NCBI GenBank assembly: GCA_049511835.1
Contig: JBEKXN010000008.1
Location: 42,090 to 106,089, forward strand
Source of the DNA: Verrucomicrobiota bacterium
GTDB lineage: Bacteria; Verrucomicrobiota; Verrucomicrobiia; Limisphaerales; UBA11358
Reading direction: 5' to 3'
Length of the DNA: 64,000 nucleotides
The stretch's first letter is position 1. Each line of letters starts with the position of its first letter. Position numbers and translations under genes: made by a program. Shown here piece by piece: positions 5,329-61,582 of this stretch. Under the pieces are notes generated by a model. That model searched no databases. It was given only the letters and a program-made list of their open reading frames with translations, and was not told the DNA's origin.

Positions 5329-6162
5329 TCATCGCAAATCCGCCGGCTTCACGCCATCCATGTCATCAAACGTCTGGTTTTCACCGGCCATGCCCCAGAT
5401 GAACCTGTAATTGCCCGTGCCGCAACCGCAATGGATGGACCAGTTCGGCGACAGCGCGACCTCCTCGTTGTGCAAAAACAGGTGCCGCGTCTGCTGTGGC
5501 TCGCCCAGAAAATGCGTCAGCACGTTCTCGCCGAGGTCGAAGTAAAAATAAATCTCCGTGCGCCGCCAGTGGGTGTGCGGCGGGAACGAATTCCACACGC
5601 TCCCCTCCTCCAGCGCGGTGAACCCCATCACGAGCTGGCAGCTTTGAATGCCGCCGGGGTGAATGTATTTGTAAATCACGCGCTGGTTCGCGTTCGCCTG
5701 CGAACCCAGCGGCACGGGCGACGCGTCCTTCGGTTTCATCGTCGCGGCGGGATGCGAGGCATGCGCCGGGCAGCTCAGGAAATAAAACTTCGCCGGATTC
5801 TTCGCGTTCTTGCTCTCGAACGTGACCGATTGGGTGCCCATCGGCAGATAAACGCAGTTCAGCCGGCCGAGCGAAAAGGTTTTGCCATCCGCATGTACCG
5901 CCCCTGCCCCGCCGACGTTGATGGCGCCGAACTCGCGGCGTTCGAGGAAAAACGCCCGCCCGGTTTCCTTGTGATTCGGCAGTTCCACCGGCTTGACCGG
6001 CATCACGCCGCCGACCACCAGCCGGTCGAGGTCGGTGAACACGCCGCGCAATTCGCCCGGCTTGAAAAGATTGGTGATTTGAAACGTGTCGCGCAATTCC
6101 TGGGTGTCTAGGCGCTGCACGTCTTGGGGCCGCGGCATCCGGCGAATGGCGTTTTCGAACAT
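5329..6162 (-). CDS. kduI: 5-dehydro-4-deoxy-D-glucuronate isomerase
   Basis: 277 aa; N-terminus MFENAIRRMPRPQDVQRLDTQELRDTFQITNLF and cupin-type core ...FPPHTHWRRTEIYFYF... are typical KduI. Confidence 0.9.
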   Translation of the reverse strand: MFENAIRRMPRPQDVQRLDTQELRDTFQITNLFKPGELRGVFTDLDRLVVGGVMPVKPVELPNHKETGRAFFLERREFGAINVGGAGAVHADGKTFSLGRLNCVYLPMGTQSVTFESKNAKNPAKFYFLSCPAHASHPAATMKPKDASPVPLGSQANANQRVIYKYIHPGGIQSCQLVMGFTALEEGSVWNSFPPHTHWRRTEIYFYFDLGENVLTHFLGEPQQTRHLFLHNEEVALSPNWSIHCGCGTGNYRFIWGMAGENQTFDDMDGVKPADLR

Positions 6163-10025: not shown

Positions 10026-11519
10026 TTACCCGATCTCGGCGAGGTATTTCCGGGTGGCGGCGGGCAGGTCGTGCCAGATTTTTATGGCAATCAGCATCCC
10101 GACCAGCGCGAATGGCATCAGAAAATACGGCCAGTAATGCCAGTTCCACGTCGTCAGGTAACCGAGGCTGAAGGACTGGATGCCGCTGCCGAGGTAGGTG
10201 CAACCATCCACGATGCCGGAGCATGTCGCCGCGGCTTTGCGTCCGCCGAAATCCGTCGCCGCCGTGCCGGCCATGAGCGACGTGATGCCCACCGCGCACA
10301 TCACGATGAGCACCGACGCACAGCCAAGAATGAGCGGGGAGGAAAACAAAAACACGGCCATCACCATCGCCATGATCAGGATGAAGCCGCACAGGAACGC
10401 CGTTGGGGGACCGCGCCGCGATTGGAACCACCAGTCGGATGCCATGCCGCCGGCGAACCCGCCGATGATGCCGAAGATGCATAACAGCAAGCCCCAATGT
10501 TGCAGGAAAAATTCCGCGCCCGGTTGTTTCACCTCGGCGGCAAAAACGAAATACCATTGCGTGATGCCATTGCGGAAAACACCCGAAGTCAGGCCGATGG
10601 CCGCAATCAGCAGCATCAACGGACTGGCAAAAACTTTTTTGAGCAGGTCGAGCGCCGTCAGCTCGATGTGCATCTGGCCGGACGAGGCGTCATGCGTGTC
10701 AAAGTACGGAAAATCCGCCTCTTCCGGTGTGTCCTTGATGAGCCACCAGTCAATCAGCACCCAGACAATCAAAATGGCCGACGGAATGAAAAACACCGCC
10801 CACGTCGCATCCACCGGTTTTGTGGTGGAAGCGAAAATGGCCTTCAGCAAATCGGGCAACCAGCCGCCGGTGGCGCCGGCTTTGGTCATATTGACAATCG
10901 CCTGCCCCCAGTCGAACGCGAAATAGACGCCGATGGAAATGAGCGTTCCAAAAATCGCGCCGAACACGCCGCGTTCGCGCACGTGGAACCAGTAGGCCTT
11001 GACCTTGATGATGGAAACCGCACCGTAGCTCTGGAAATACATGTTCACCGAGTAGAGAAATGAAAAGGCGACGACCATGTTGACTTTCAATTTTCCCATC
11101 ACGAGCAGCCAGGTCAGCACCCCGAGCAGGATATTCGCCGCCGACGCGCCCAAGGCGGCGATGATGATGCCGCGTTTGCCGCCGATTTTGTCCACGAGCG
11201 GGCCGTTGACGAGAAACGACACCGCGTAAGTGACCGTGCCCGCCGCGAAGATCAGCCCGAGGTCCTCCTTCGACATCAAATCGCCGAGCGCGTTTTTGGA
11301 GACGTTGAGGTTGTAGCGTCCCATGTAAAGGAACGCGTAAGTCATGCCGAGCGGAAACCAGTTGATGAAGCGGCGCAGCATGAACCACCGGCTGTGGCCC
11401 ATCGGGTTGTTGTGAAAATACAACCCGATAATCACCGCCAGACAAATGCCGACCAAAAGCAAGTCCATTAAAATCCTTCGGTAGCCCGACAGAAAAACAG
11501 ACCCGCCCGGCGCGGTCAA
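10026..11519 (-). CDS. MFS transporter, OPA (GlpT/UhpC-like) family, paralog
   Basis: 497 aa (TTG start at 11519; ATG alternative at 11468); FLYMGRYNLNVSK, GPLVDKIGGKR, YWFHVRERG. Confidence 0.75.
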   Translation of the reverse strand: MTAPGGSVFLSGYRRILMDLLLVGICLAVIIGLYFHNNPMGHSRWFMLRRFINWFPLGMTYAFLYMGRYNLNVSKNALGDLMSKEDLGLIFAAGTVTYAVSFLVNGPLVDKIGGKRGIIIAALGASAANILLGVLTWLLVMGKLKVNMVVAFSFLYSVNMYFQSYGAVSIIKVKAYWFHVRERGVFGAIFGTLISIGVYFAFDWGQAIVNMTKAGATGGWLPDLLKAIFASTTKPVDATWAVFFIPSAILIVWVLIDWWLIKDTPEEADFPYFDTHDASSGQMHIELTALDLLKKVFASPLMLLIAAIGLTSGVFRNGITQWYFVFAAEVKQPGAEFFLQHWGLLLCIFGIIGGFAGGMASDWWFQSRRGPPTAFLCGFILIMAMVMAVFLFSSPLILGCASVLIVMCAVGITSLMAGTAATDFGGRKAAATCSGIVDGCTYLGSGIQSFSLGYLTTWNWHYWPYFLMPFALVGMLIAIKIWHDLPAATRKYLAEIG

Positions 11520-31860: not shown

Positions 31861-33333
31861 CTATTGGTCCACCGGCACGTCTTCGTCACTGACTTTGGCT
31901 GCGCTTTCAAAACGAGTGTACGGTTTCAAAAAGGTTAAGTTTACATCACCTGTGGGGCCGTTGCGCTGCTTCGCAATCAACAGATTAATCGGCAGTCCAT
32001 CCGGCTCTTCCACTGTGGCGCCATCTTCATCTTCACCAGCGTTCGGCTTGTACAGCAGACCCACCACGTCGGCGTCCTGTTCAATCGCGCCCGATTCACG
32101 CAAATCAGACAACCGCGGCTTGCGGCTTTTGTCCCGCTCCAATTCGCGGTTCAACTGGCTGAGCACCAGCATCGGCACCTTCAATTCCTTCGCCAGCGCC
32201 TTGATGCCGCTGGAAATGTCCGAAATTTCCTGCTGCCGGTTTTCCTGTGCCCGGCGCGCAGTAGAATGCAGCAATTGCAGGTAGTCAATCACGAAAAGCT
32301 TGATGCCGTGCTGCTGCGCCAGCCGCCGCGCCCGCGCGCGCAGTTGCAAAATCGAAAGCGCCGCCGAATCATCAATGAACAACGGCGCGCCCGCCAGCCG
32401 GCCCGCCGCGTTGGTCAGCTTCGGAAAATCCGACTCGCTCATGAAGCCTTCGCGGATGCTGCGCAGATTCACCCGCGCGAGCGAACACATCATGCGCAAC
32501 ACCAGCGCCTCCGCGCTCATTTCCAGGCTGAACACGGCCACCGGCAACTTTTGCTCCAGCACCACGTGCTCCGCGATGTTCATGGCGATGGAGGTTTTGC
32601 CCATGCTGGGACGGGCGGCGATGACGATCATTTCACTCCCGTGCAAACCGTCCGTTATCCGGTCCAGGTCCGTGAAGCCCGTGGCCAGGCCGTTCAACAC
32701 GCCTTTGCGGCTGAAATAATTTTCAATCGTCCCGATGGCCTTGCCCACCAGCTCCTTCGTGGGCAACACGCCGCCTCGCACGCGCGATTCCGCAATTTGC
32801 AAAACATCTCGTTCAACCTCGTCAAGTAGTGCATCAACCTCTCCTTCAAATTCATAGACTTTACTGGTCGCCTCAGTGCAAACCGCAATCATTTTCCGCA
32901 ACAAAAATTTTTCGCGGACGATGTCTAGGTAATAGGAAAGATTCGCTGCACTCGGAACTGCGTCCTGGAGTTGGGACAAATAAAGAATCCCACCGATTTG
33001 TTCCAGTAAACCTTTATCTTTTAGCTTTTGCTGAAGAGTGATTACATCAATTCCTTGCCGCTGATCGTACATTGCGGCCAACATCTCGTAAATTGTTTGA
33101 TGTCGCAGGTCATAAAAAACGTCTGGTCCAATATCCTTTAGTTTCTCGATGCATTCTCCCATGCATTCATTAGGCGAAAGCAGCGCACAACCTAGAACCC
33201 CTTGTTCTGCTTCGATCGAATGGGGCGGCAATCGATCCAGATGCAACTTTTCCGTTGCTTCTGACCTTACACGGCGAGTCTTTTTCAAATCTGGCGAAGC
33301 GGTTCTATCTGAATTTAAATTGCTCATATGCAT
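31861..33333 (-). CDS. dnaB: replicative DNA helicase DnaB (start uncertain: ATG 33333 or 33387)
   Basis: LPPHSIEAEQGVLGCALL N-terminal domain; Walker A AARPSMGKTS; IDYLQL; SQLNRELE; AKQRNGPTG. ATG 33333 overlaps the TAA of the upstream 92-aa ORF (TAATG). GC drops from about 60% to about 40% upstream of about 32800. Confidence 0.9.
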   Translation of the reverse strand: MHMSNLNSDRTASPDLKKTRRVRSEATEKLHLDRLPPHSIEAEQGVLGCALLSPNECMGECIEKLKDIGPDVFYDLRHQTIYEMLAAMYDQRQGIDVITLQQKLKDKGLLEQIGGILYLSQLQDAVPSAANLSYYLDIVREKFLLRKMIAVCTEATSKVYEFEGEVDALLDEVERDVLQIAESRVRGGVLPTKELVGKAIGTIENYFSRKGVLNGLATGFTDLDRITDGLHGSEMIVIAARPSMGKTSIAMNIAEHVVLEQKLPVAVFSLEMSAEALVLRMMCSLARVNLRSIREGFMSESDFPKLTNAAGRLAGAPLFIDDSAALSILQLRARARRLAQQHGIKLFVIDYLQLLHSTARRAQENRQQEISDISSGIKALAKELKVPMLVLSQLNRELERDKSRKPRLSDLRESGAIEQDADVVGLLYKPNAGEDEDGATVEEPDGLPINLLIAKQRNGPTGDVNLTFLKPYTRFESAAKVSDEDVPVDQ

Positions 33334-33611
33334 TAATTGTTTTGGTTTGCGGTGGCTTTTGATAACGCTCGTTTGGATCTTCGCCATTGGGTGATATCCG
33401 ACGGCACGTAGATTTTGCTTAACTTTGTGTTAAGCCAATCAGCCCCAAAATCTCCTCTACCAAAATCGTAAGCAGCTTGATCGGGGTCTGTATAATTGGA
33501 GTGAATGAATACCCCATTGAAACAAAAATCCCAAAAGCCTGGACACTCTTTGTTTTTGGAAAGGCTCAACACGCCTTTGCCGGTGTCAAATTCATAATAT
33601 TTGGGTTCCAT
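33333..33611 (-). CDS. hypothetical 92-aa protein, low GC, translationally abutted to dnaB
   Basis: ORF-track ORF MEPKYYEFDTGKGVLSLSKNKECPGFWDFCFNGVFIHSNYTDPDQAAYDFGRGDFGADW... No family recognised. Confidence 0.4.
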   Translation of the reverse strand: MEPKYYEFDTGKGVLSLSKNKECPGFWDFCFNGVFIHSNYTDPDQAAYDFGRGDFGADWLNTKLSKIYVPSDITQWRRSKRALSKATANQNN

Positions 33612-33711
33612 ACGTTTCGAAGATCAGGCTACTCATTCAACTGTAAAAGAAAAAAACGACTTCTTCACCGCTTAAATCGACGTTTGTGAATAAAGGACGA
33701 GTAATTTTTTT

Positions 33712-35034
33712 TTATTCACAAGGTTGCTGACAAAAATTCATTACGAAAGTGCTGGCACTACGGCCAATGTGGCGGTTTGGTGACGCTCCGTTCCGGACGA
33801 GCTTGATCTCCCCAGCCTTTTGTCCAATTGCAGGAGCACTCCAGTTTTCGCGGTTTATCTGCCGGGACAACGCCAAGTAGAGGCATACCCAAATCAAATT
33901 GAAATCTCTGATGCGGCATTGTGGAAGCTCCGGTAATCCGTGTTTATCCTTGTTCCAAGGTGAAGCACCGCCGCCGTTGTGCGGGTGATAACTGACGAGT
34001 TGCCAGCGCCGCCCGTCCGCCACAACGAGGCCTTGTGGCGAACCTGCGACGCGACCCAACAGCGGTGAACCTTCCGGCAGATGAGCGCCGTCAAGCGGTT
34101 GGCCGGGATAACCACCCGGCACAATGACCAGCACATCGGTCATCTGAAGATGCCGGTAACCCGGACGCGTTGGCACGTCGCGGTAAATCACCGCCGGGAA
34201 CGGTTGCTGGATGAAATCCACCCGGCAACCACCCTGCTTGAGTTTTTCCAACTCGCGCTCAATGCGCGTCGGTTCGACAAAGCCGCCGGCGACGTTGTTT
34301 CGAACCACACGGAACTCGTCGCAGTTCTCGATGCAAATCTCCTTGTCCAAGGGCACGGGTTCGGGTTCGCCCTTCTTCAACAGGCGGAACACTTCCGTAT
34401 TGCGCGGATTGTCGCTGACAAGCGCGGCGATTTGCAACCCAGTCATGTGATGCTTTACGCCCTCGGCCTCAGTGAAGCGTTTGTTGTTCACGATGATTTC
34501 CAGTTGAGTGTGCTGACGGCGGGTGTAAAACACCGGCCCCTTGTCAAACGGCGCGGCTTCTTCAAGGCTGATTGACTCGTCACGCGGTGACTCAAAATCC
34601 CGGAACAGAAGCACGTCATCCTTAAAGCCAAACAGCTCGCGGATGGACTTTCCAGTCTGATGCGGATTTATCGTCACCTCCGCCCGGTCGTCCACGATTA
34701 GGGCCAGCTTCGGCGGCGCGCTGCATTGCCCACGCGGTTTTACGTCGCAGGCGGCCAACCGATAGAAGACGTTTCCTTTTGCGAGGTCAACGGTTTCTCC
34801 GTCGGCTAATACCGTGTCATCCGGCGAGTCGTAATCACGGACCAGCACGAAATTGGGAGGAATCTCGGCTTGCGCCTTGATGACGCCGACCTTGACCAGT
34901 TGCCGCGGCATCGGAATCGGCTCATCATCAACCAGCGCTGCCCACTTTGGCGCGGGGCTGCAATTCTGCGCATGTTCTGCCTCGGGTTCTCCGCGGCCCT
35001 CTTGAATAACTTTATCGTTCATAGTCTTTCTCAT
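33712..35034 (-). CDS. fusion of three ubiquitin-like (multiubiquitin-type) repeats with a prokaryotic E2-fold (Prok-E2_E-like) domain
   Basis: ORF 33712..35178 trimmed to ATG 35034 (or 35022), because the long form overlaps the divergent XRE gene. Three repeats of about 65 aa: ALVDDEPIPM...GNVFYRL / ALIVDDRAEV...GPVFYTR / LEIIVNNKRFTEAEGVKHHMTGLQIAAL...DEFRVV. Then VPTRPGYRHLQMTDVLVIVPGGYPGQPLDGAHL...DGRRWQLVSYHPHNGGGASPWNKDKHGL, resembling the lPxGY...DlLixlPxgYP...WQRwSRH...W pattern. Family assignment is from memory and unverified. Confidence 0.55.
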   Translation of the reverse strand: MRKTMNDKVIQEGRGEPEAEHAQNCSPAPKWAALVDDEPIPMPRQLVKVGVIKAQAEIPPNFVLVRDYDSPDDTVLADGETVDLAKGNVFYRLAACDVKPRGQCSAPPKLALIVDDRAEVTINPHQTGKSIRELFGFKDDVLLFRDFESPRDESISLEEAAPFDKGPVFYTRRQHTQLEIIVNNKRFTEAEGVKHHMTGLQIAALVSDNPRNTEVFRLLKKGEPEPVPLDKEICIENCDEFRVVRNNVAGGFVEPTRIERELEKLKQGGCRVDFIQQPFPAVIYRDVPTRPGYRHLQMTDVLVIVPGGYPGQPLDGAHLPEGSPLLGRVAGSPQGLVVADGRRWQLVSYHPHNGGGASPWNKDKHGLPELPQCRIRDFNLIWVCLYLALSRQINRENWSAPAIGQKAGEIKLVRNGASPNRHIGRSASTFVMNFCQQPCE

Positions 35035-35074
35035 TTCGAGTTTTAGCGACCAGTTCCAACGTGGGAACCAGCTC

Positions 35075-35102
35075 GATGTTGCGTTAGTGCAACATCGTTG
35101 CA
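35075..35102. promoter_or_regulatory. overlapping palindromes, candidate XRE operator(s) in divergent promoter region
   Basis: GATGTTGC-GTTAGT-GCAACATC overlapping TGCAAC-ATC-GTTGCA. Half-site GTTGC/GCAAC occurs four times within 28 bp between the Ubl/E2 gene and the XRE gene. Confidence 0.4.
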
Positions 35103-35170
35103 TTACCAATAACACAAAAGACTTGTCGCGCAAGTGAAAAAGTGTATCATTCAAGAAACAGTTATTGCCT

Positions 35171-35545
35171 ATGCCCACTCAACCACATATCAACCTGAAA
35201 AAATTGGCGGCTCACCTTCGCACGAAGCGCGGCACAAAAGGCCTGCGCGAAGTAGCGATGGAAATTGGCGACGTGAGTGCTTCTACACTCTCGCGAATCG
35301 AACAAGGCAATGTGCCAGATGTGGCCACCTTCATGCGCATTTGTCGGTGGTTGGGGGTAGATTCCCGTGCATTCATGACGGAAACATCTTCGGAAAAGGA
35401 AAAAATCGATACCCCGCACGTCATTGAAGCGCATCTCCGGGCGGATCGCGTTCTGCCTTCAGAAACGATTAACGCGCTATCAGAAATGATTCGCGTCGCG
35501 TATAAGGCGGCGAAGGAGGGGAAACTAAAAAAAATGAACGAATGA
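35171..35545 (+). CDS. XRE-family helix-turn-helix transcriptional regulator
   Basis: LKKLAAHLRTKRGTKGLREVAMEIGDVSASTLSRIEQGNVPDVATFMRICRWLGV is a Cro/C1-type HTH. ATG 35171 preferred over TTG 35165. Confidence 0.75.
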   Translation: MPTQPHINLKKLAAHLRTKRGTKGLREVAMEIGDVSASTLSRIEQGNVPDVATFMRICRWLGVDSRAFMTETSSEKEKIDTPHVIEAHLRADRVLPSETINALSEMIRVAYKAAKEGKLKKMNE

Positions 35546-35549
35546 ATTC

Positions 35550-36122
35550 ATGCAACGTGGTTTCAAAACTAAGGCAGAAAAAATTGCGTGTGAACTCAGG
35601 GCCAAGCTCGGACTTACCGCACATTCACCACTTTCTGCAAAGAAACTCATCGAGCATTTGGAGGTTTTGCTCCTCCGGCCTACGGACATCCCTGAATTAA
35701 AGCCCGAGGTGATTGACGAAATGCTGAACGGTAGTGCAAGTCGTTGGTCCGCTGTTACGATTTACGATCCGTGCGGTCAGCCTTTCATTATCCACAATCC
35801 GAAACATGCGCCGACGCGTCAAGAAAGTGATCTCATGCACGAGGCTGCCCATGTTCTATGCAAACATCCACCTGGAAAGATTGTTCGGGTAGGAGAACTA
35901 AATTTTCGCTCCTATGATGAAAACCATGAGGAAGAAGCCAAATGGCTCGGTGCATGTTTGCAGATCACCAGACGCGGCTTACTTTGGGCTATCGGTCGCC
36001 AGATGACCATCGAGCAAATTGGCGAATATTTCTGTGCAAGCGAGGCGCTCATTCGGTATCGGCGGAATGTGACAGGTGTGGATGTGCAAATGATGCGGTA
36101 TTACGGTGTTTCGTATCGTTGA
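35550..36122 (+). CDS. ImmA/IrrE-family zinc metallopeptidase
   Basis: HEAAHVLCKH (HExxH) with downstream EEEAKWLGACL. Lies 4 nt after the XRE gene, the classical XRE-ImmA pair. Confidence 0.75.
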   Translation: MQRGFKTKAEKIACELRAKLGLTAHSPLSAKKLIEHLEVLLLRPTDIPELKPEVIDEMLNGSASRWSAVTIYDPCGQPFIIHNPKHAPTRQESDLMHEAAHVLCKHPPGKIVRVGELNFRSYDENHEEEAKWLGACLQITRRGLLWAIGRQMTIEQIGEYFCASEALIRYRRNVTGVDVQMMRYYGVSYR

Positions 36123-36253
36123 AAACTTTATTCGATTCTTCAGCGCACCTTCATGAAAGCCGGAAACGGATTAAACAATTCGCCAACAGTTCTTGACTTT
36201 AGTGGCCCGGCTCGTAAGCGTTAGTCCTGCTGCCGCTGCTGCTGCTTTTATTT

Positions 36254-36709
36254 ATGAAATTCAAAATCTACGCTGCTAAAATCGAAGACATGAACCAAGG
36301 TTGGGTTTGGCTTGGCGGGCACGACAAGCTTGACCAACGAAGTATTGTCAAGTTCTCAACTGGCAGCACGCATAAAAGTGTCTATTGTGAAGTTCTCAAA
36401 ATAGACGGAAACTTCATAAACGACTACAACCGGCCCGGCGAAGGCCGCATTGCGATTAGTGATCAGCAATCAGCATTAGTTGTTAGCGAGTGGTATAGGA
36501 AAAAGTTGGGAAATTTGCAAACACGCACCGAGGTTGAAATCAACGTGGAAGTCGCTAATCGTGTTTGTGGACGGCTTCATGCCTGTTTAGATCATCCCCA
36601 AGTGGTGGTTCGCCTTGCTACAATGCTTGGAATTTGGAGCGTCGTTCTCGGTGTTATTGCTGTCATTCTTGGCGCTATCGCTATTGTCGAACCTTTCTTC
36701 ATAAAATGA
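36254..36709 (+). CDS. hypothetical protein with soluble N-terminal beta-rich domain and C-terminal transmembrane anchor
   Basis: 151 aa; C-terminus LATMLGIWSVVLGVIAVILGAIAIVEPFFIK is strongly hydrophobic. Low GC. No family recognised with confidence. Confidence 0.5.
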   Translation: MKFKIYAAKIEDMNQGWVWLGGHDKLDQRSIVKFSTGSTHKSVYCEVLKIDGNFINDYNRPGEGRIAISDQQSALVVSEWYRKKLGNLQTRTEVEINVEVANRVCGRLHACLDHPQVVVRLATMLGIWSVVLGVIAVILGAIAIVEPFFIK

Positions 36710-36898
36710 CCAAATCCGTGTCAAAAATCTGCGTTCATCCGCATATCTACTGGTGACCCGCCGGCCATTTACATCTCTACTGTATCGGCTAACGCGCGTC
36801 CTGCATCGGCTCATGGGTTTCCTTGACCCGCTAACAGCCTGACCGAAAAATTCTGTCAATTCCATCGGCCACCGCTAAACTTGGCGCATATTGGAGAC

Positions 36899-38188
36899 AT
36901 GAACCGCAAACCATCGTTGCTCGTCGTTTTCCTGACGGTCTTCATTGACCTCATCGGTTTCGGCATCGTCGTGCCGCTGGTGCCGATTTACAGCCGGCAT
37001 TACGGCGCCAACGGCTTCGTCATCGGCGCCATCTTCGCCTCGTTTTCCGCGATGCAATTTGTCTTTTCCCCGGTTTGGGGCCGGCTGTCCGACCGGCACG
37101 GTCGTCGGCCGATTCTGCTCATCAGCACCGCCAGCGCGGCTGTGTCGTACCTGCTGTTTGCCATCGGTTCGGGCTTTGAAAATCACACCGCCGCGCTTTG
37201 GGCGTTGCTGATCTCCCGCGTCTGTGCCGGTATTTGTGGCGGCAACATCACCGTCGCCCAGGCTTACATCGCCGACATCACGCCGCCGGAAAACCGGTCG
37301 AAGCGGATGGCCCTCATCGGCGTGGCCTTCGGATTGGGGTTTGTTATCGGTCCGGCACTCGGCGGGATTACCTTGCATTTTTTCGGCGCCACCGGTCCGG
37401 GTTGGACTGCCGCGGCGCTGTGCGCGGCCAATTTCATTCTGGCGTTTTGCATCCTCGCCGAAAGCTTGAAGCCGGAATCCAGCCAGGCGACCCGACGACC
37501 GCATTTTGCCCAGTGGGGCCACACCCTGTCTCAGCCGAAAATCGGCTTGTTGATCCTGATTTTCTTTCTGGCCACGTTCGCCTTCAGTTGCTTTGAAACA
37601 ACCCTGGCATTGTTGGTTAACGATAATTTCAATCTCGGCCTCACTGTGGACGAAACCAAACCGGGAGTCACGGTCACTTCCCTGTTTGTTTTTTGTGGAA
37701 TCATCGGCGTGTTTATCCAGGGCGGGGCCATCGGCCGGCTGGTCAAAATGTTCGGCGAACCGAAATTGATTTCCCTGAGCCTGTTCCTGACCGGCATCAG
37801 CCTGATTCTCCTGCCGTTCATCAAAGGCGACGGCCAGCTCAAGTGGCTGGCCGTTCTGCACGCGACCGACTGGCCGTGGATCAAAATGCTTCTGGCGCTG
37901 GCGCTGCTGGCAGTGGGTACCGCCCTGACGCGACCGCCGCTGTTCGGATTGCTTTCCAACCTGGCGCCGCCGAACGAACAGGGCGCGACCATCGGCGTCG
38001 CGCAAAGCGCCGGCAGTCTGGCGCGCATTCTCGGCCCGCTCTTCGCCGCGACGCTTTACACGCACGTCGCATCGCTGCCTTACGTGACTTGTGGTGTCAT
38101 TTCCATCCTGGCTGGGGTTTTGGCGGTTGGGCGGTTGGGCGGGGGAGCCGGGGCCGTTGACAGAAAAGCGCCGGAAGCGGCGAATTGA
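36899..38188 (+). CDS. MFS transporter (TCR/Tet-like drug:H+ antiporter type)
   Basis: ATG 36899 preceded by GGAGA. MNRKPSLLVVFLTVFIDLIGFGIVVPLVP...GRLSDRHGRRPILL motif A. Confidence 0.8.
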   Translation: MNRKPSLLVVFLTVFIDLIGFGIVVPLVPIYSRHYGANGFVIGAIFASFSAMQFVFSPVWGRLSDRHGRRPILLISTASAAVSYLLFAIGSGFENHTAALWALLISRVCAGICGGNITVAQAYIADITPPENRSKRMALIGVAFGLGFVIGPALGGITLHFFGATGPGWTAAALCAANFILAFCILAESLKPESSQATRRPHFAQWGHTLSQPKIGLLILIFFLATFAFSCFETTLALLVNDNFNLGLTVDETKPGVTVTSLFVFCGIIGVFIQGGAIGRLVKMFGEPKLISLSLFLTGISLILLPFIKGDGQLKWLAVLHATDWPWIKMLLALALLAVGTALTRPPLFGLLSNLAPPNEQGATIGVAQSAGSLARILGPLFAATLYTHVASLPYVTCGVISILAGVLAVGRLGGGAGAVDRKAPEAAN

Positions 38189-40945: not shown

Positions 40946-42589
40946 TTACGCCTTGAGAATGGCCATGGCCTTTTTGTTTTCCGAATCGGTCAGGTACGGA
41001 ATGCCGGTTTCCGCCGCGGTCTCTCGATTGCCGGCCATGAGGTCGTCGCGAGAGATCTCGGACAGTTTGGCCCGGCGGGCACCGGCCATGAACTGCTGCA
41101 GACCGCAGGCGACTTTGTCGGCATAGGCATACATCGCCACCGCGCCGAACGGAATCTTCTTCATCTCGGCGGCGCCGACCTTCTTGGACACCGCTTCCCA
41201 CGCGGCAAAGATCTGCTCGGGCTTGTCGCCGTAGCAGGTGACGGTGGCCGGCAATTCATCCCAGTGACCGTGTACCGCCTGGCGGCGATCCGGATGCAGC
41301 ACGCCTTCGATGTTGCTGCCCACAAAGGCCGGGATCATCGGAGCGCGGCCCATGCAGACGAGCTTCACAAACGGCGCGCCCAAGGCGAGGGCTTTGAACA
41401 TGTGGTCTTCGCGCGCCAGACCGCCCGCAAACGCGAGGTCCGGCACGGCCAGGCCGCGGTCGGCCAGCATCTTGGTGTACTCGTAAGCCTTCGCATGGAG
41501 CGGCAGGGACGGCACACCCCAATGCTCCATCATGTTCCACGGGCTCATGCCGGTGCCGCCACCCGCACCGTCAATGGTGAGCAGGTCCAGCTTGGCGTCG
41601 GTGGCGCAACGGATGGCCAGCGCCAGTGCTTCCATGCCGTAGGAACCGGTCTTGAGCGTGATGCGCTTGTGGCCGATCTTGCGCAGGTACTTGATGGCCT
41701 TCATGAAATCGTCCTGCACCTGTTTGGCGGACGAGAGGTTCGTGCCGCCCAGACGGCTGTGCCGGGCGAACGCGCGAAGTGCGCCGCTCTTGAACGCCGC
41801 TTCCACGATCGGATCGTACGGATCGGGATCCACAATGTAGCCGCGGTCCTTGAGGAACCGGGCGTATTCGATATTATCCACCTGGATTTCGCCGCCGATG
41901 CACTTGGCCCCCTGGCCCCACTTGAGTTCGAGAATGACCTCGTTGGGATATTTTTCGGCCAGGTATTCCGCGACGCCGTTGCGGGTGTCTTCGACATTCA
42001 TCTGCACAATGATGACGCCCTTGCCGTCAAAGTAGCGCAGGAACATGTTGATGCGACGATCCAATTCCGGCGAAATCTCGATGCGCCCCTTTTTGAGAAC
42101 GGATTTGCGGTCCACGCCAACGACGTTCTCGCCCACGACTATGGGGAATCCGCAGAGGGCGGCGCCGATGGCAAAGGAATCCCAGTAACGCGCCGCCACG
42201 AACGTGGAGCCCAGCGCGCCGGTCATCATCGGGACGCGGCATTTGACGGGGTTGGTCCGTCCGAACTGCGTGGAGATGTCCACTTCCGGGAAAATGCAAT
42301 GGTCGGCATCGGTTTTGCCGTCCTTCCCGTTCCAACCATAGGCATAGCCATGGATGCGCAAGGCGTGGTAGCCCACGCCCACGGAAGTCACGTTGCCGGA
42401 ACCGGACGTGATGTAGCCGAATTTTCGCGGATACAACATTTCCCGCCCCCGCAGGGCGGACATCCACGTTTCACATTTGCCTTTGCAGGCCGAGTCGCAC
42501 AACGTGCACAGACCCGACTCACAGGGATTTCCCCGGTTGCTGGTTCCCAGGGCGTCATTGCTTTTTCTCCATTCAATCATAACCACCAC
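40946..42589 (-). CDS. stand-alone FMN-binding glutamate-synthase-domain-2 family protein with N-terminal Cys cluster
   Basis: 547 aa; CESGLCTLCDSACKGKCE, then ...MMTGALGST..., KWGQGAKCIGGEIQ, TIDGAGGGTGMSP, AFAGGLAREDHMFKALALGA resemble the GltB FMN (TIM-barrel) domain. Confidence 0.75.
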   Translation of the reverse strand: MVVMIEWRKSNDALGTSNRGNPCESGLCTLCDSACKGKCETWMSALRGREMLYPRKFGYITSGSGNVTSVGVGYHALRIHGYAYGWNGKDGKTDADHCIFPEVDISTQFGRTNPVKCRVPMMTGALGSTFVAARYWDSFAIGAALCGFPIVVGENVVGVDRKSVLKKGRIEISPELDRRINMFLRYFDGKGVIIVQMNVEDTRNGVAEYLAEKYPNEVILELKWGQGAKCIGGEIQVDNIEYARFLKDRGYIVDPDPYDPIVEAAFKSGALRAFARHSRLGGTNLSSAKQVQDDFMKAIKYLRKIGHKRITLKTGSYGMEALALAIRCATDAKLDLLTIDGAGGGTGMSPWNMMEHWGVPSLPLHAKAYEYTKMLADRGLAVPDLAFAGGLAREDHMFKALALGAPFVKLVCMGRAPMIPAFVGSNIEGVLHPDRRQAVHGHWDELPATVTCYGDKPEQIFAAWEAVSKKVGAAEMKKIPFGAVAMYAYADKVACGLQQFMAGARRAKLSEISRDDLMAGNRETAAETGIPYLTDSENKKAMAILKA

Positions 42590-60251: not shown

Positions 60252-60598
60252 AGATTTTGCCAATATTGTTTTTTGCGTTTCTTTGCCAATTCCAGTTCGT
60301 CTGGCGGCGTCTTTTGCTGTTTCTTGATGAAGCCGTGCAGCAGCACAATTTCCTGATCCACCATCGTAAACAGCGTCCGCGCGATGCGGTTATCCAACCG
60401 TGAACGGACCTCCCAAATGCCGTCACCCAAATTGTCAACCAACGGCTTCCCTACCGGCCACGCGTATTGCACCGTCAGAATGTCCGTGCCGATGACCTTG
60501 CAGTCCTCTTTCGACAATCCTTTCAGCCATTCCCGCACTGGTTCATTGCCCGCCTCGGTCTTGAAAAAGACGACTTTGAGCGGGCGTTCAGCTTTCAT
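60248..60598 (-). CDS. higB: RelE/ParE-superfamily toxin (HigB / phage Gp49-like), toxin-first operon
   Basis: LKVVFFKTEAGNEPVREWLKGLSKEDCKVIGTDILTVQYAWPVGKPLVDNLGDGIWEVRSRLDNRIARTLFTMVDQEIVLLHGFIKKQQKTP. Confidence 0.75.
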   Translation of the reverse strand: MKAERPLKVVFFKTEAGNEPVREWLKGLSKEDCKVIGTDILTVQYAWPVGKPLVDNLGDGIWEVRSRLDNRIARTLFTMVDQEIVLLHGFIKKQQKTPPDELELAKKRKKQYWQNL

Positions 60599-60938
60599 CC
60601 GCAAAGTAGTGTATCAAAAAAGATACGTTTGTCAAATGGAGATAAGCAGCGCCCCGATGTGCTTTGGAACTGGTCACAAATTGTGACCAGTTCGGAGTAT
60701 CTTTCTGAATGCCAATGGATTGCACACATGAGGTCACAAATTGTGACCTCAAGTTGGCGACTTCTGCCGCAGTCAGTTGAAAGGTAAAGTCCGTGGGAAA
60801 TCGGTCAAAGTTGCGCTTTACAGCCTGGTTGAAAACTTTTGTCGGCACACCATAAAGCTCCGCCAAGTCGGCATCCAGAATCACCTTCTGATTGCGAATG
60901 TTCAAAATCAGGGTTTCAATCGGTTTCTTTGGCTTCAT
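60588..60938 (-). CDS. ORF6N (KilA-N-like) DNA-binding domain protein, probably C-terminally truncated/degenerate
   Basis: IRNQKVILDADLAELYGVPTKVFNQAVKRNFDRFPTDFTFQLTAAEVANLRSQFVTS is ORF6N-like. The usual GGRRYxPYAFTE continuation is garbled, and the 3' end overlaps higB. Confidence 0.55.
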   Translation of the reverse strand: MKPKKPIETLILNIRNQKVILDADLAELYGVPTKVFNQAVKRNFDRFPTDFTFQLTAAEVANLRSQFVTSCVQSIGIQKDTPNWSQFVTSSKAHRGAAYLHLTNVSFLIHYFADES

Positions 60939-61013
60939 ATTGTCGGATGGTCCCAGTTCGATTCCCGGCCCAAGCGGATTGGCAATTATCGTAGCCCTCG
61001 GCAGATTTTAGGC

Positions 61014-61053
61014 AAATAGAAAACCGCGTAAAGCGGCGGAGCCGCCACGCGGT
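61014..61053 (-). terminator. intrinsic terminator after the 61211..61582 gene
   Basis: Minus strand ACCGCGT-GGCGGCTCCGCCGCTTT-ACGCGGT followed by TTTTCTATTT. Confidence 0.45.
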
Positions 61054-61210
61054 GGGCTGGGGAAGTTTCAAGTTTTCAGTGTTCAGTTTTCAGCCGCAAA
61101 GGGGCAAAGGGGTCGGATAAAAGGTACCGCCTCACCGATGAATTATTCCTGGTCTTGATTGAAGCCGATGCGGCGCCGGGGTTTCTCCGGCAGGGGCGTT
61201 GGGATTATGT

Positions 61211-61582
61211 TTACCTCTTAATCGTCGTGTGAAATGATTTTCTGTCATCCGCCGTCACACTGAGTTTTGTATCGGAGACGACAATCTTAAGTTTGGCCTC
61301 AGCTGGAATCTTCGCTTTTTCCATCCCATCGAGCAAAAGTCGTTCTTTCTCAATTACAAGCTTGTGTCCGAGAAACTCAACGCCCGGCTCACTGTTTCGA
61401 TCAACGATGAAGCCGGAAGCATCAATGTCGGCATTGATTTCGTGTCCGGCCACGTTCCCCATAAGAATCGAATGAACCGCCGGCAGAGCGACGGCCTGAT
61501 TGGGTTTACTACGACCCCATGACGCGGTTATCCCTACCGCGGTTACGAGCGCGATCAAAAGCAGTGGGATAAGTATGCGCAT
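61211..61582 (-). CDS. hypothetical membrane-anchored/secreted protein
   Basis: ORF trimmed to ATG 61582. MRILIPLLLIALVTAVGITASWG signal/anchor. Low GC. Confidence 0.4.
   Translation of the reverse strand: MRILIPLLLIALVTAVGITASWGRSKPNQAVALPAVHSILMGNVAGHEINADIDASGFIVDRNSEPGVEFLGHKLVIEKERLLLDGMEKAKIPAEAKLKIVVSDTKLSVTADDRKSFHTTIKR

Follow-up and report, generated by a model that had tools for sequence, protein, structure and literature searches.

The stretch of DNA analyzed here (the window; 64,000 nucleotides) spans positions 42,090 to 106,089 of contig JBEKXN010000008.1, from a Verrucomicrobiota metagenome-assembled genome (MAG). Its list of open reading frames (ORFs) places five ORFs between dnaB (31861-33387, minus strand) and a major facilitator superfamily (MFS) transporter gene (36881-38188, plus strand), the largest of which encodes a 436-aa fusion of three ubiquitin-like (Ubl) domains with an E2-like domain. 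We conclude with high confidence that this locus is a Type I Bub-like (6E.1-like) operon inactivated by a microhomology-mediated deletion. Type I Bub (formerly 6E.1 / DUF6527) operons encode BubAB (Ubl-E2), BubCD (JAB-E1), and BubE (a DUF6527 serine protease), as exemplified by BubAB-BubCD-BubE of Citrobacter sp. RHBSTW-00271 (Ye, Gong, Chambers, and Corbett, bioRxiv 10.1101/2024.11.21.623953). The conclusion draws on the deletion and its junction, the domain content, synteny with intact relatives, and a recurrent association with regulators of one kind. The features that carry it are as follows.

33712-35022, minus strand: 436-aa ORF, which gene callers start at the ATG at 35022; residues 1-363 are BubAB-like (Ubl3-E2) and residues 364-436 are a frameshift tail
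34282-34947, minus strand: three tandem beta-grasp (ubiquitin-like) domains, residues ~26-247, ending in Gly246-Gly247 (Pfam, AlphaFold2, Foldseek)
33934-34281, minus strand: E2-like (BubB-type) domain, residues 248-363, with invariant D311, S344, and H346; the last 16 residues are gone
33935-33939: deletion junction, a single copy of the 5-bp microhomology (GGATT on the coding strand)
33758-33937, minus strand: JAB-E1 (BubCD-like) remnant, the final 59 codons plus stop, in a frame that differs from that of the fusion ORF

Deletion junction and JAB-E1 remnant

A tblastn search of the window with the E1 protein of a close relative (L001) returned one significant match, in which residues 429-487 align to 33761-33937 on the minus strand with 96.6% aa identity (E 1e-32). 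The ORF list contains this remnant as a 53-aa ORF at 33758-33919. At the nucleotide level, blastn alignments with L001, L005, L006, and L012 run through the fusion gene to window position 33935, jump ~1.35 kb in the relative, and resume at 33939, with a 5-bp overlap. The junction in the window reads ...AAACACGGATTACCGGAGC... The 3' end of BubAB in the relatives reads ...AAACACGGATT up to the breakpoint and GCACAC... beyond it (in a shorter excerpt, CACGGATT before GCACAC), and their BubCD codon 428 reads ...GGATGGATT and ACCGGAGC... on the two sides of the breakpoint. These sites lie 1,348 bp apart in L001, a distance that is not a multiple of 3. The window lost 1,348 bp between two GGATT pentamers: the last 16 codons and stop codon of bubAB, a 9-bp spacer, and ~427 of the 487 bubCD codons.

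The break is also visible in the proteins. Intact homologs of 376-385 aa cover just 83% of the 436-aa protein, and similarity stops right after '...WNKDKHGL' at residue 363. There the homologs continue for 16 further residues (HTYxDEILCWIHRAN.) and end, and the window ORF runs on for 73 residues unrelated to them. This tail is the 3' end of the E1 gene together with 43 bases past the E1 stop codon, read out of frame. The 16 lost residues hold four invariant positions in intact homologs (Y366, E369, W373, and A377), and an AlphaFold2 model of one such homolog is helical over residues 363-375, with a block-mean predicted local distance difference test (pLDDT) score of ~77-78. A first-pass annotation made from the sequence had the gene coordinates right, as the ORF list confirms, but it described both E1 and JAB as absent. 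The final 59 JAB-E1 codons are still present at 33761-33937, and the last 73 residues of the ORF, being E1 remnant plus downstream DNA out of frame, lie outside the E2 domain.

Domain content and intact relatives

The large ORF matches the Pfam family Multi_ubiq (PF14452) at 25.8 bits (cut-off 24.5). An identical 436-aa protein is on record as a hypothetical protein of a Verrucomicrobiota MAG, and 328 family matches were found, abundantly in MAGs of Verrucomicrobiota and Planctomycetota. We modeled the 436-aa protein with AlphaFold2 from 73 homologs. The model contains three confident beta-grasp units (strands plus helix) over residues ~26-241, with pLDDT mostly above 90, followed by an alpha/beta domain that extends to ~residue 345; residues 356-436, the tail, have pLDDT below 50. 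Foldseek against the Protein Data Bank (PDB) ranked bacterial multi-ubiquitin proteins highest (9cd2 from E. coli ZDHYS365 and 9d5a from Citrobacter; E 3.5e-11 to 7e-10) and also returned Citrobacter BubB (9eae_C; probability 1.00, E 0.023) and residues 155-229 of BubA (9ea8_B). Pfam, AlphaFold2, and Foldseek thus agree with the initial reading of three Ubl repeats joined to an E2 of the multiubiquitin-associated family.

Conservation across the same 73 sequences points to the functional residues. Gly246-Gly247, which closes the third beta-grasp domain, is invariant and is the predicted JAB processing site. It would correspond to the Gly at the Ubl end after which the JAB domain cleaves Citrobacter BubAB (bioRxiv 10.1101/2024.11.21.623953). 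The E2 region has no invariant Cys, in keeping with the first-pass annotation, which had seen none at the active site; invariant instead are D311 in a 'PLD' motif and S344 and H346 in the 'SYHPH' motif. In Citrobacter BubB, an invariant Ser has a His and an Asp close by (S333/H335/D299), and the pathway proceeds by way of oxyester intermediates (bioRxiv 10.1101/2024.11.21.623953). From their similar spacing, rather than from a superposition, we infer that D311, S344, and H346 are the equivalents of D299, S333, and H335. At ~133 aa, the E2 part of an intact homolog has the length seen in Citrobacter.

Intact versions of the operon are common. A scan with one genome per species gave 68 loci, 46 of them with a BubAB-type match (L001-L044, L046, and L047). 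An E1 gene of ~487 aa lies immediately downstream of the fusion gene in all 46, with the E1 match split in L013, L030, L041, and L046. In close relatives, this ThiF-family gene starts ~10 bp after the fusion gene. The full-length E1 proteins match ThiF at 94-104 bits and, at their N-terminus, Prok-JAB at up to 24.8 bits (cut-off 25), and they are colinear with Citrobacter BubCD in the PDB (5.8e-10). The closest metagenomic relatives (84-91% aa identity) encode bubAB, then bubCD, then a small gene of 72-80 aa, with a sigma-70-like gene and a gene of 248-337 aa (three genes in L001) divergent from bubAB.

One of these relatives, L005, is a 2.2-Mb contig syntenic with the window at ~80-85% nucleotide identity. 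It carries, in order, the MFS gene, regulators, BubAB, a full BubCD, the 92-aa gene discussed below, and DnaB, which means that the operon already occupied this chromosomal site when the deletion occurred. Separately, the 5' end of the MFS gene occurs twice in L005, ~3 kb apart (5903-5990 versus 1657-2876; window 36891-36978), which suggests that the stretch separating the MFS gene from the Bub regulators underwent either an insertion that duplicated its target or a rearrangement. More broadly, relatives of the operon sit in defense or mobile islands with AbiE, Fic, restriction-modification (R-M), and integrase genes.

Two further observations concern the relatives themselves. In L030 (~10378-11370), the E1 tblastn match falls into two pieces (residues 2-421 and 419-482) ~1 kb apart, which may reflect a separate event that disrupted bubCD close to the same codon region. 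A conserved pair of large genes (~807 aa and ~331 aa) adjoins the Bub operon in 10 loci (among L016-L021, L024, L028, L032, L041, and L043; for example, L016 3513-6853).

Regulators and neighboring genes

The remaining features of the locus are a divergent regulatory block and two flanking genes.

35023-35170: divergent promoter/operator region with inverted repeat, palindrome, and sigma-70-like site
35171-35545, plus strand: CapH-like XRE-family helix-turn-helix (HTH) repressor, 124 aa (126 aa if from the TTG at 35165)
35550-36122, plus strand: CapP-like M78 (ImmA/IrrE-type) zinc metallopeptidase, 190 aa, with an HEAAH motif
36254-36709, plus strand: 151-aa protein with a hydrophobic C-terminus, a neighbor and apparently not a conserved component
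33333-33611, minus strand: 92-aa conserved hypothetical gene, between the operon and dnaB

Pfam supports the pairing of an XRE regulator with an ImmA/IrrE-type peptidase that the first-pass annotation had named: the XRE protein matches HTH_31 (29 bits) and HTH_3 (28.5 bits), and its partner matches Peptidase_M78 (48.4 bits). The M78 protein has a weak PADLOC match to capP (15.3 bits, E 0.0026) and a likewise weak one to RmrA, and by sequence it gave only a chance match in the PDB. A scan of viral contigs found no M78 relatives, leaving a prophage origin of the regulator block without support. Homologs of both proteins were found in metagenome contigs at 57-77% identity, the XRE protein at 64-73% in L089, L092, and L094. 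In these three loci the XRE/M78 pair divergently adjoins multi-ubiquitin or BubAB-type genes, and L092 has a separate Prok-E2_E gene (47 bits). A more distant pair (35-36% identical; XRE 36%) lies beside a multi-Ubl gene in a Frigoriglobus MAG (L057).

The palindromes reported earlier in the divergent intergenic region are also conserved. An inverted repeat, CGATGTTGC-N6-GCAACATCG, lies at 35074-35097 and a palindrome, ACTTGTCGCGCAAGT, at 35121-35135, with a sigma-70-like promoter match (TTGTCG-16-TATCAT) at 35123-35150. The GTTGC-N6-GCAAC arms, and a CTTGTC.CGCAAGTG...GTAT block that takes in both the palindrome and the sigma-70-like match, recur in the intergenic regions of L089, L092, and L094. 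A scan for terminators found none. Together, the regulator homologs and the conserved intergenic features point to the XRE/M78 pair as a genuine, still intact regulator of this kind of operon. The pair does not constitute evidence for a new system.

One of these loci also carries a related Ubl protein. The L089 gene at 884-1627 encodes a 247-aa multi-ubiquitin protein that has its first two beta-grasp domains in common with the window protein (75% identity, residues 1-184); its third domain differs, and it has no E2. The divergent XRE/M78 pair of L089 is 72-77% identical to that of the window.

In the cyclic oligonucleotide-based antiphage signaling system (CBASS), CapP cleaves CapH upon exposure to single-stranded DNA (ssDNA) or DNA damage, and the CapH+CapP pair was also noted next to ubiquitin-like operons (Lau et al., bioRxiv 10.1101/2022.04.27.489752). 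The ancestral cassette, which relatives retain intact, had bubAB (three Ubl beta-grasp domains plus a Cys-less E2) and bubCD (an N-terminal JAB peptidase plus a ThiF-type E1) as its core genes. By analogy with Citrobacter Bub, and with CBASS CapH and CapP for the regulators, the JAB domain would cut BubAB after Gly-Gly to free the Ubl, which the E1 would then adenylate. From there, the Ubl would move through oxyesters, first on an E1 Tyr and then on E2 Ser344 (aided by His346 and Asp311), onto target lysines. The probable binding site of the CapH-like XRE repressor is the conserved GTTGC-N6-GCAAC operator in the divergent promoter, and the CapP-like M78 peptidase is expected to cleave the repressor once DNA damage or ssDNA is sensed. 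The first-pass annotation's proposal of a conflict or stress module governed by a damage-responsive switch is supported. Deletion between the GGATT pentamers left a frameshifted fusion ORF, with the regulators intact. Without the peptidase and E1, the Ubl would be neither released nor activated, leaving the conjugation pathway dead.

The 92-aa and 151-aa proteins have no Pfam or PADLOC match. The family of the 151-aa protein has 64 members, which lie beside integrase/RadC/AAA_5/HsdM, HEPN_Apea, or TIR genes. Its homologs are never beside XRE/M78 or Bub genes, and the gene is absent from the other XRE/M78 loci. By this distribution, the 151-aa protein is apparently an unrelated neighbor, which removes the membrane protein from the module in which it had been included. 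It was also considered as a substitute for BubE, which has a hydrophobic extension, and rejected: it has no DUF6527 signal and no C4 Cys cluster, and its homologs occur in unrelated contexts. The 92-aa gene has an 85%-identical copy in L005 in the corresponding position, between the intact E1 gene and DnaB. As a candidate BubE it was rejected on the same grounds as the 151-aa protein; it is conserved next to dnaB in L005.

The proposed low-GC (guanine plus cytosine) island holds only in part. GC is 0.42-0.44 in the 92-aa gene and the 5' end of dnaB, and 0.45-0.51 in the XRE/M78/151-aa block, but the fusion gene, at 0.582, is at background (window mean 0.579); the whole interval described as an island (33333-36870) has a GC of 0.505. 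The 5' part of dnaB (32801-33387) has a GC of 0.44, versus 0.59 in the remainder of the gene. Its conservation in L005 marks it as a local feature and not as a piece of an acquired island. Elsewhere in the window, GC falls below 0.50 in a single 1-kb stretch, 60501-61500 (0.497). Among marks of an integrated island, no tRNA genes were found in the 64-kb window, and the direct repeats that it contains are short and at chance level.

Competing explanations and comparison with known systems

Several observations weigh against assigning the locus to a decayed Type I Bub operon. The Prok-E2_E (PF14462) match of the large ORF is weak, at 17.1 bits (cut-off 25). When the fusion protein and the 73-sequence profile were compared with PDB chains by sequence (HMMER), nothing meaningful was returned for BubA or BubB, so the link to the solved Bub chains rests on Pfam families, fold, and architecture. 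DUF6527 (PF20137), the BubE domain, is absent from the window and from L001-L047, both by motif scan and by a hidden Markov model (HMM) built from eight DUF6527 ORFs. Phage protection by Bub operons has not yet been demonstrated (PMC13373217), so that a defense role is still presumed for the family as a whole. Finally, the surviving 363 codons contain no stops or frameshifts, and decay is not visible past the deletion itself.

The ratio of nonsynonymous to synonymous substitution rates (dN/dS) of those 363 codons against relatives is 0.06-0.11, compared with 0.05-0.14 among intact genes (one very close pair, 0.22); as a measure of relaxed selection, it does not set the window's gene apart from intact ones. 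Low dN/dS and the lack of internal stops indicate a deletion that is recent compared with the time over which the sampled relatives diverged. A recent deletion fits these values, which do not in themselves prove loss of function. A tblastn search of the 64-kb window turned up no further E1 of this type, and no BubAB paralog or BubCD homolog tagged ABSG80 (the locus prefix of this MAG) was among the matches listed, a weak indication in that only some matches are named. The loss of BubCD takes away both the peptidase that would expose the Ubl C-terminus and the E1 that would adenylate it. Conjugation is very likely dead in this copy.

The alternative that fares best is that the truncated Ubl3-E2 keeps, or has gained, a conjugation-independent role (for instance, damage-inducible self-assembly via its first two beta-grasp domains) or uses an E1 and JAB encoded elsewhere, so that the locus is still a working module under XRE/M78 control. 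The regulators and promoter elements are intact, as is the ORF over 363 codons, the dN/dS of the remaining part is low, and the deleted allele is present in five assemblies. Ubl3 proteins of Bub and Bil operons form Ca2+-dependent filaments by themselves (10.1101/2024.11.21.623966). However, pairwise dN/dS at a dS of ~0.5-1.0 mostly reflects history before the deletion and says little about present selection. The E1 gene is kept beside the fusion gene in 46 of 46 related loci, and the 16 lost residues include the four invariant positions and the predicted helix. The searches of the window and of the listed matches for a second set of partners, described above, also came back empty. We therefore consider a working module unlikely and favor an operon inactivated by deletion.

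An assembly or binning artefact, with an intact operon in the true genome, is less probable still and would be quite surprising. The window does come from a MAG, and the split matches in the related long-read MAG loci L013, L041, and L046 suggest frameshift errors. Yet the same deleted allele, identical in protein and junction, recurs in four further contigs from different samples and pipelines (two from JGI, one from an ENA k141 assembly, and one from Logan), and the deletion is for this reason not an assembly artefact. Moreover, a repeat of 5 bp is much too short for an assembly to collapse on it, and both flanks of the junction are colinear with the relatives.

Least credible of all is the original proposal that XRE-ImmA, an orphan Ubl3-E2, a membrane protein, and a small gene form a compact, acquired new defense system that never needed E1 or JAB: the gene set is compact, the regulator block is lower in GC, and the operon's relatives occupy the defense and mobile islands noted above, but the E1 remnant and readable junction record an E1-JAB gene that was once present, the architecture is that of described Type I Bub operons with CapH/CapP-type regulators, at other loci the 151-aa protein never accompanies XRE/M78 or Bub genes, the fusion gene is at background GC, and a relative with ~80-85% identity has the operon at the same chromosomal position. 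The first-pass annotation had itself listed a decayed remnant of a canonical E1-E2-JAB operon as the outcome that would undo its case for novelty, and such a remnant is what the locus contains. The system is a described one, present here as a broken copy, rather than a new one.

The relatives raise a point of their own, separate from the window's copy. All Bub operons are said to have bubE (Ye et al., bioRxiv 10.1101/2024.11.21.623953); the BubAB+BubCD clade L001-L047 contrasts with this statement, as no DUF6527/BubE lies within ~8 kb. As a positive control, the motif scan found eight DUF6527 ORFs in distant loci (L050, L058, L060-L062, L065, L067, and L069), two of which Pfam confirmed as PF20137 at 86-92 bits. 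PF20137 was also absent from the precomputed Pfam annotation of close metagenomic neighborhoods. The window's clade thus appears to form a branch without BubE, in which the third gene often encodes a small hydrophobic protein and the regulator upstream is often sigma-70-like. Many relatives lack XRE/M78; in its place they carry a divergently transcribed sigma-70-like gene (Sigma70_r2, up to 33.7 bits) whose partners vary by locus (L001 5658-7860; L005 6251-7802; the upstream genes of L083-L088). In L001, these partners are a 137-aa protein and a 337-aa protein with an HEIAH motif, and the sigma-70-like set may be another protease-based regulator module for Bub operons. A combined scenario can be drawn from these observations. 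In it, the truncated Ubl3-E2 would be retained under an intact DNA-damage switch for a conjugation-independent role (damage-induced self-assembly, or a dominant-negative or decoy function), and the clade would be a distinct BubE-less Type I Bub subtype, with a 72-80-aa hydrophobic third gene where present and, as its usual regulator, a sigma-70-like protein with varying partners, one with HExxH. We doubt that all of this holds together.

As a discovery, the locus matters little: the system type, the Cys-less chemistry, and the regulator pair are all already published, and the copy in the window is broken. It does offer a clean natural example of a putative defense or stress operon lost by microhomology-mediated deletion while its regulators survive. 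It also provides a caution for annotation: when an 'orphan' component comes with a long, odd C-terminal tail, the first thing to look for is what is left of the missing partner, read in a shifted frame. The side point of possible use to the field is the large Verrucomicrobiota/Planctomycetota BubAB-BubCD clade without the supposedly universal BubE and with other regulators. This BubE-less branch is a modest, variant-level observation on the relatives and not on the window's broken copy.

Among known systems, Bil (bacterial ISG15-like) operons also combine Ubl, E2, JAB peptidase, and E1. They differ in encoding these as separate proteins, with a Cys-based E2 and an E1 that has tandem adenylation domains and a Cys domain, none of which match this locus. 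CapH+CapP, a transcriptional regulator pair of CBASS and other immune operons that is present at 168 of 544 Bub operons (31%; bioRxiv 10.1101/2024.11.21.623953), resembles the regulator block in gene order, with an XRE-type HTH gene followed by a gene for an M78/ImmA-like HExxH peptidase, upstream of and divergent from the operon, and in the palindromic sites of the shared promoter region. The differences are that the PADLOC capP match is only weak, that no PDB sequence match was obtained, and that the operon to be controlled is broken.

The closest correspondence is with Type I Bub (6E.1). The first-pass annotation had described an orphan gene set that fits no named system, but the Ubl-E2 fusion, the Ser-based E2, and the CapH+CapP association of the locus all match this type. 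As in Type I Bub operons, a Ubl of three beta-grasp domains, its end marked by a conserved Gly, is fused to an E2 of ~133 aa (in the intact homolog) with invariant Ser, His, and Asp and no Cys. A JAB-E1 fusion follows directly downstream in the relatives, and the window keeps a remnant of it. CapH+CapP-type regulators and folds that match the solved BubA and BubB chains complete the likeness. Ubls with three beta-grasp domains make up 53% of Bub Ubls (10.1101/2024.11.21.623966). By contrast, only 59 codons of bubCD are left in the window, out of frame, the C-terminal helix is missing from the E2, and identity to the Citrobacter proteins is below HMMER detection for BubA and BubB. The window and the 46-locus clade have no BubE/DUF6527; many close relatives carry a 72-80-aa hydrophobic protein after bubCD, and many have a sigma-70-like regulator gene upstream. 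The neighborhoods of Multiubiquitin, Prok-E2 family E, E1, and JAB genes (PF14452 and PF14462), to both of which the fusion has Pfam matches, are the family that the first-pass annotation had invoked; they are the same system under an older, purely bioinformatic name, and the chemistry of their Cys-less E2 has since been worked out as oxyester-based.

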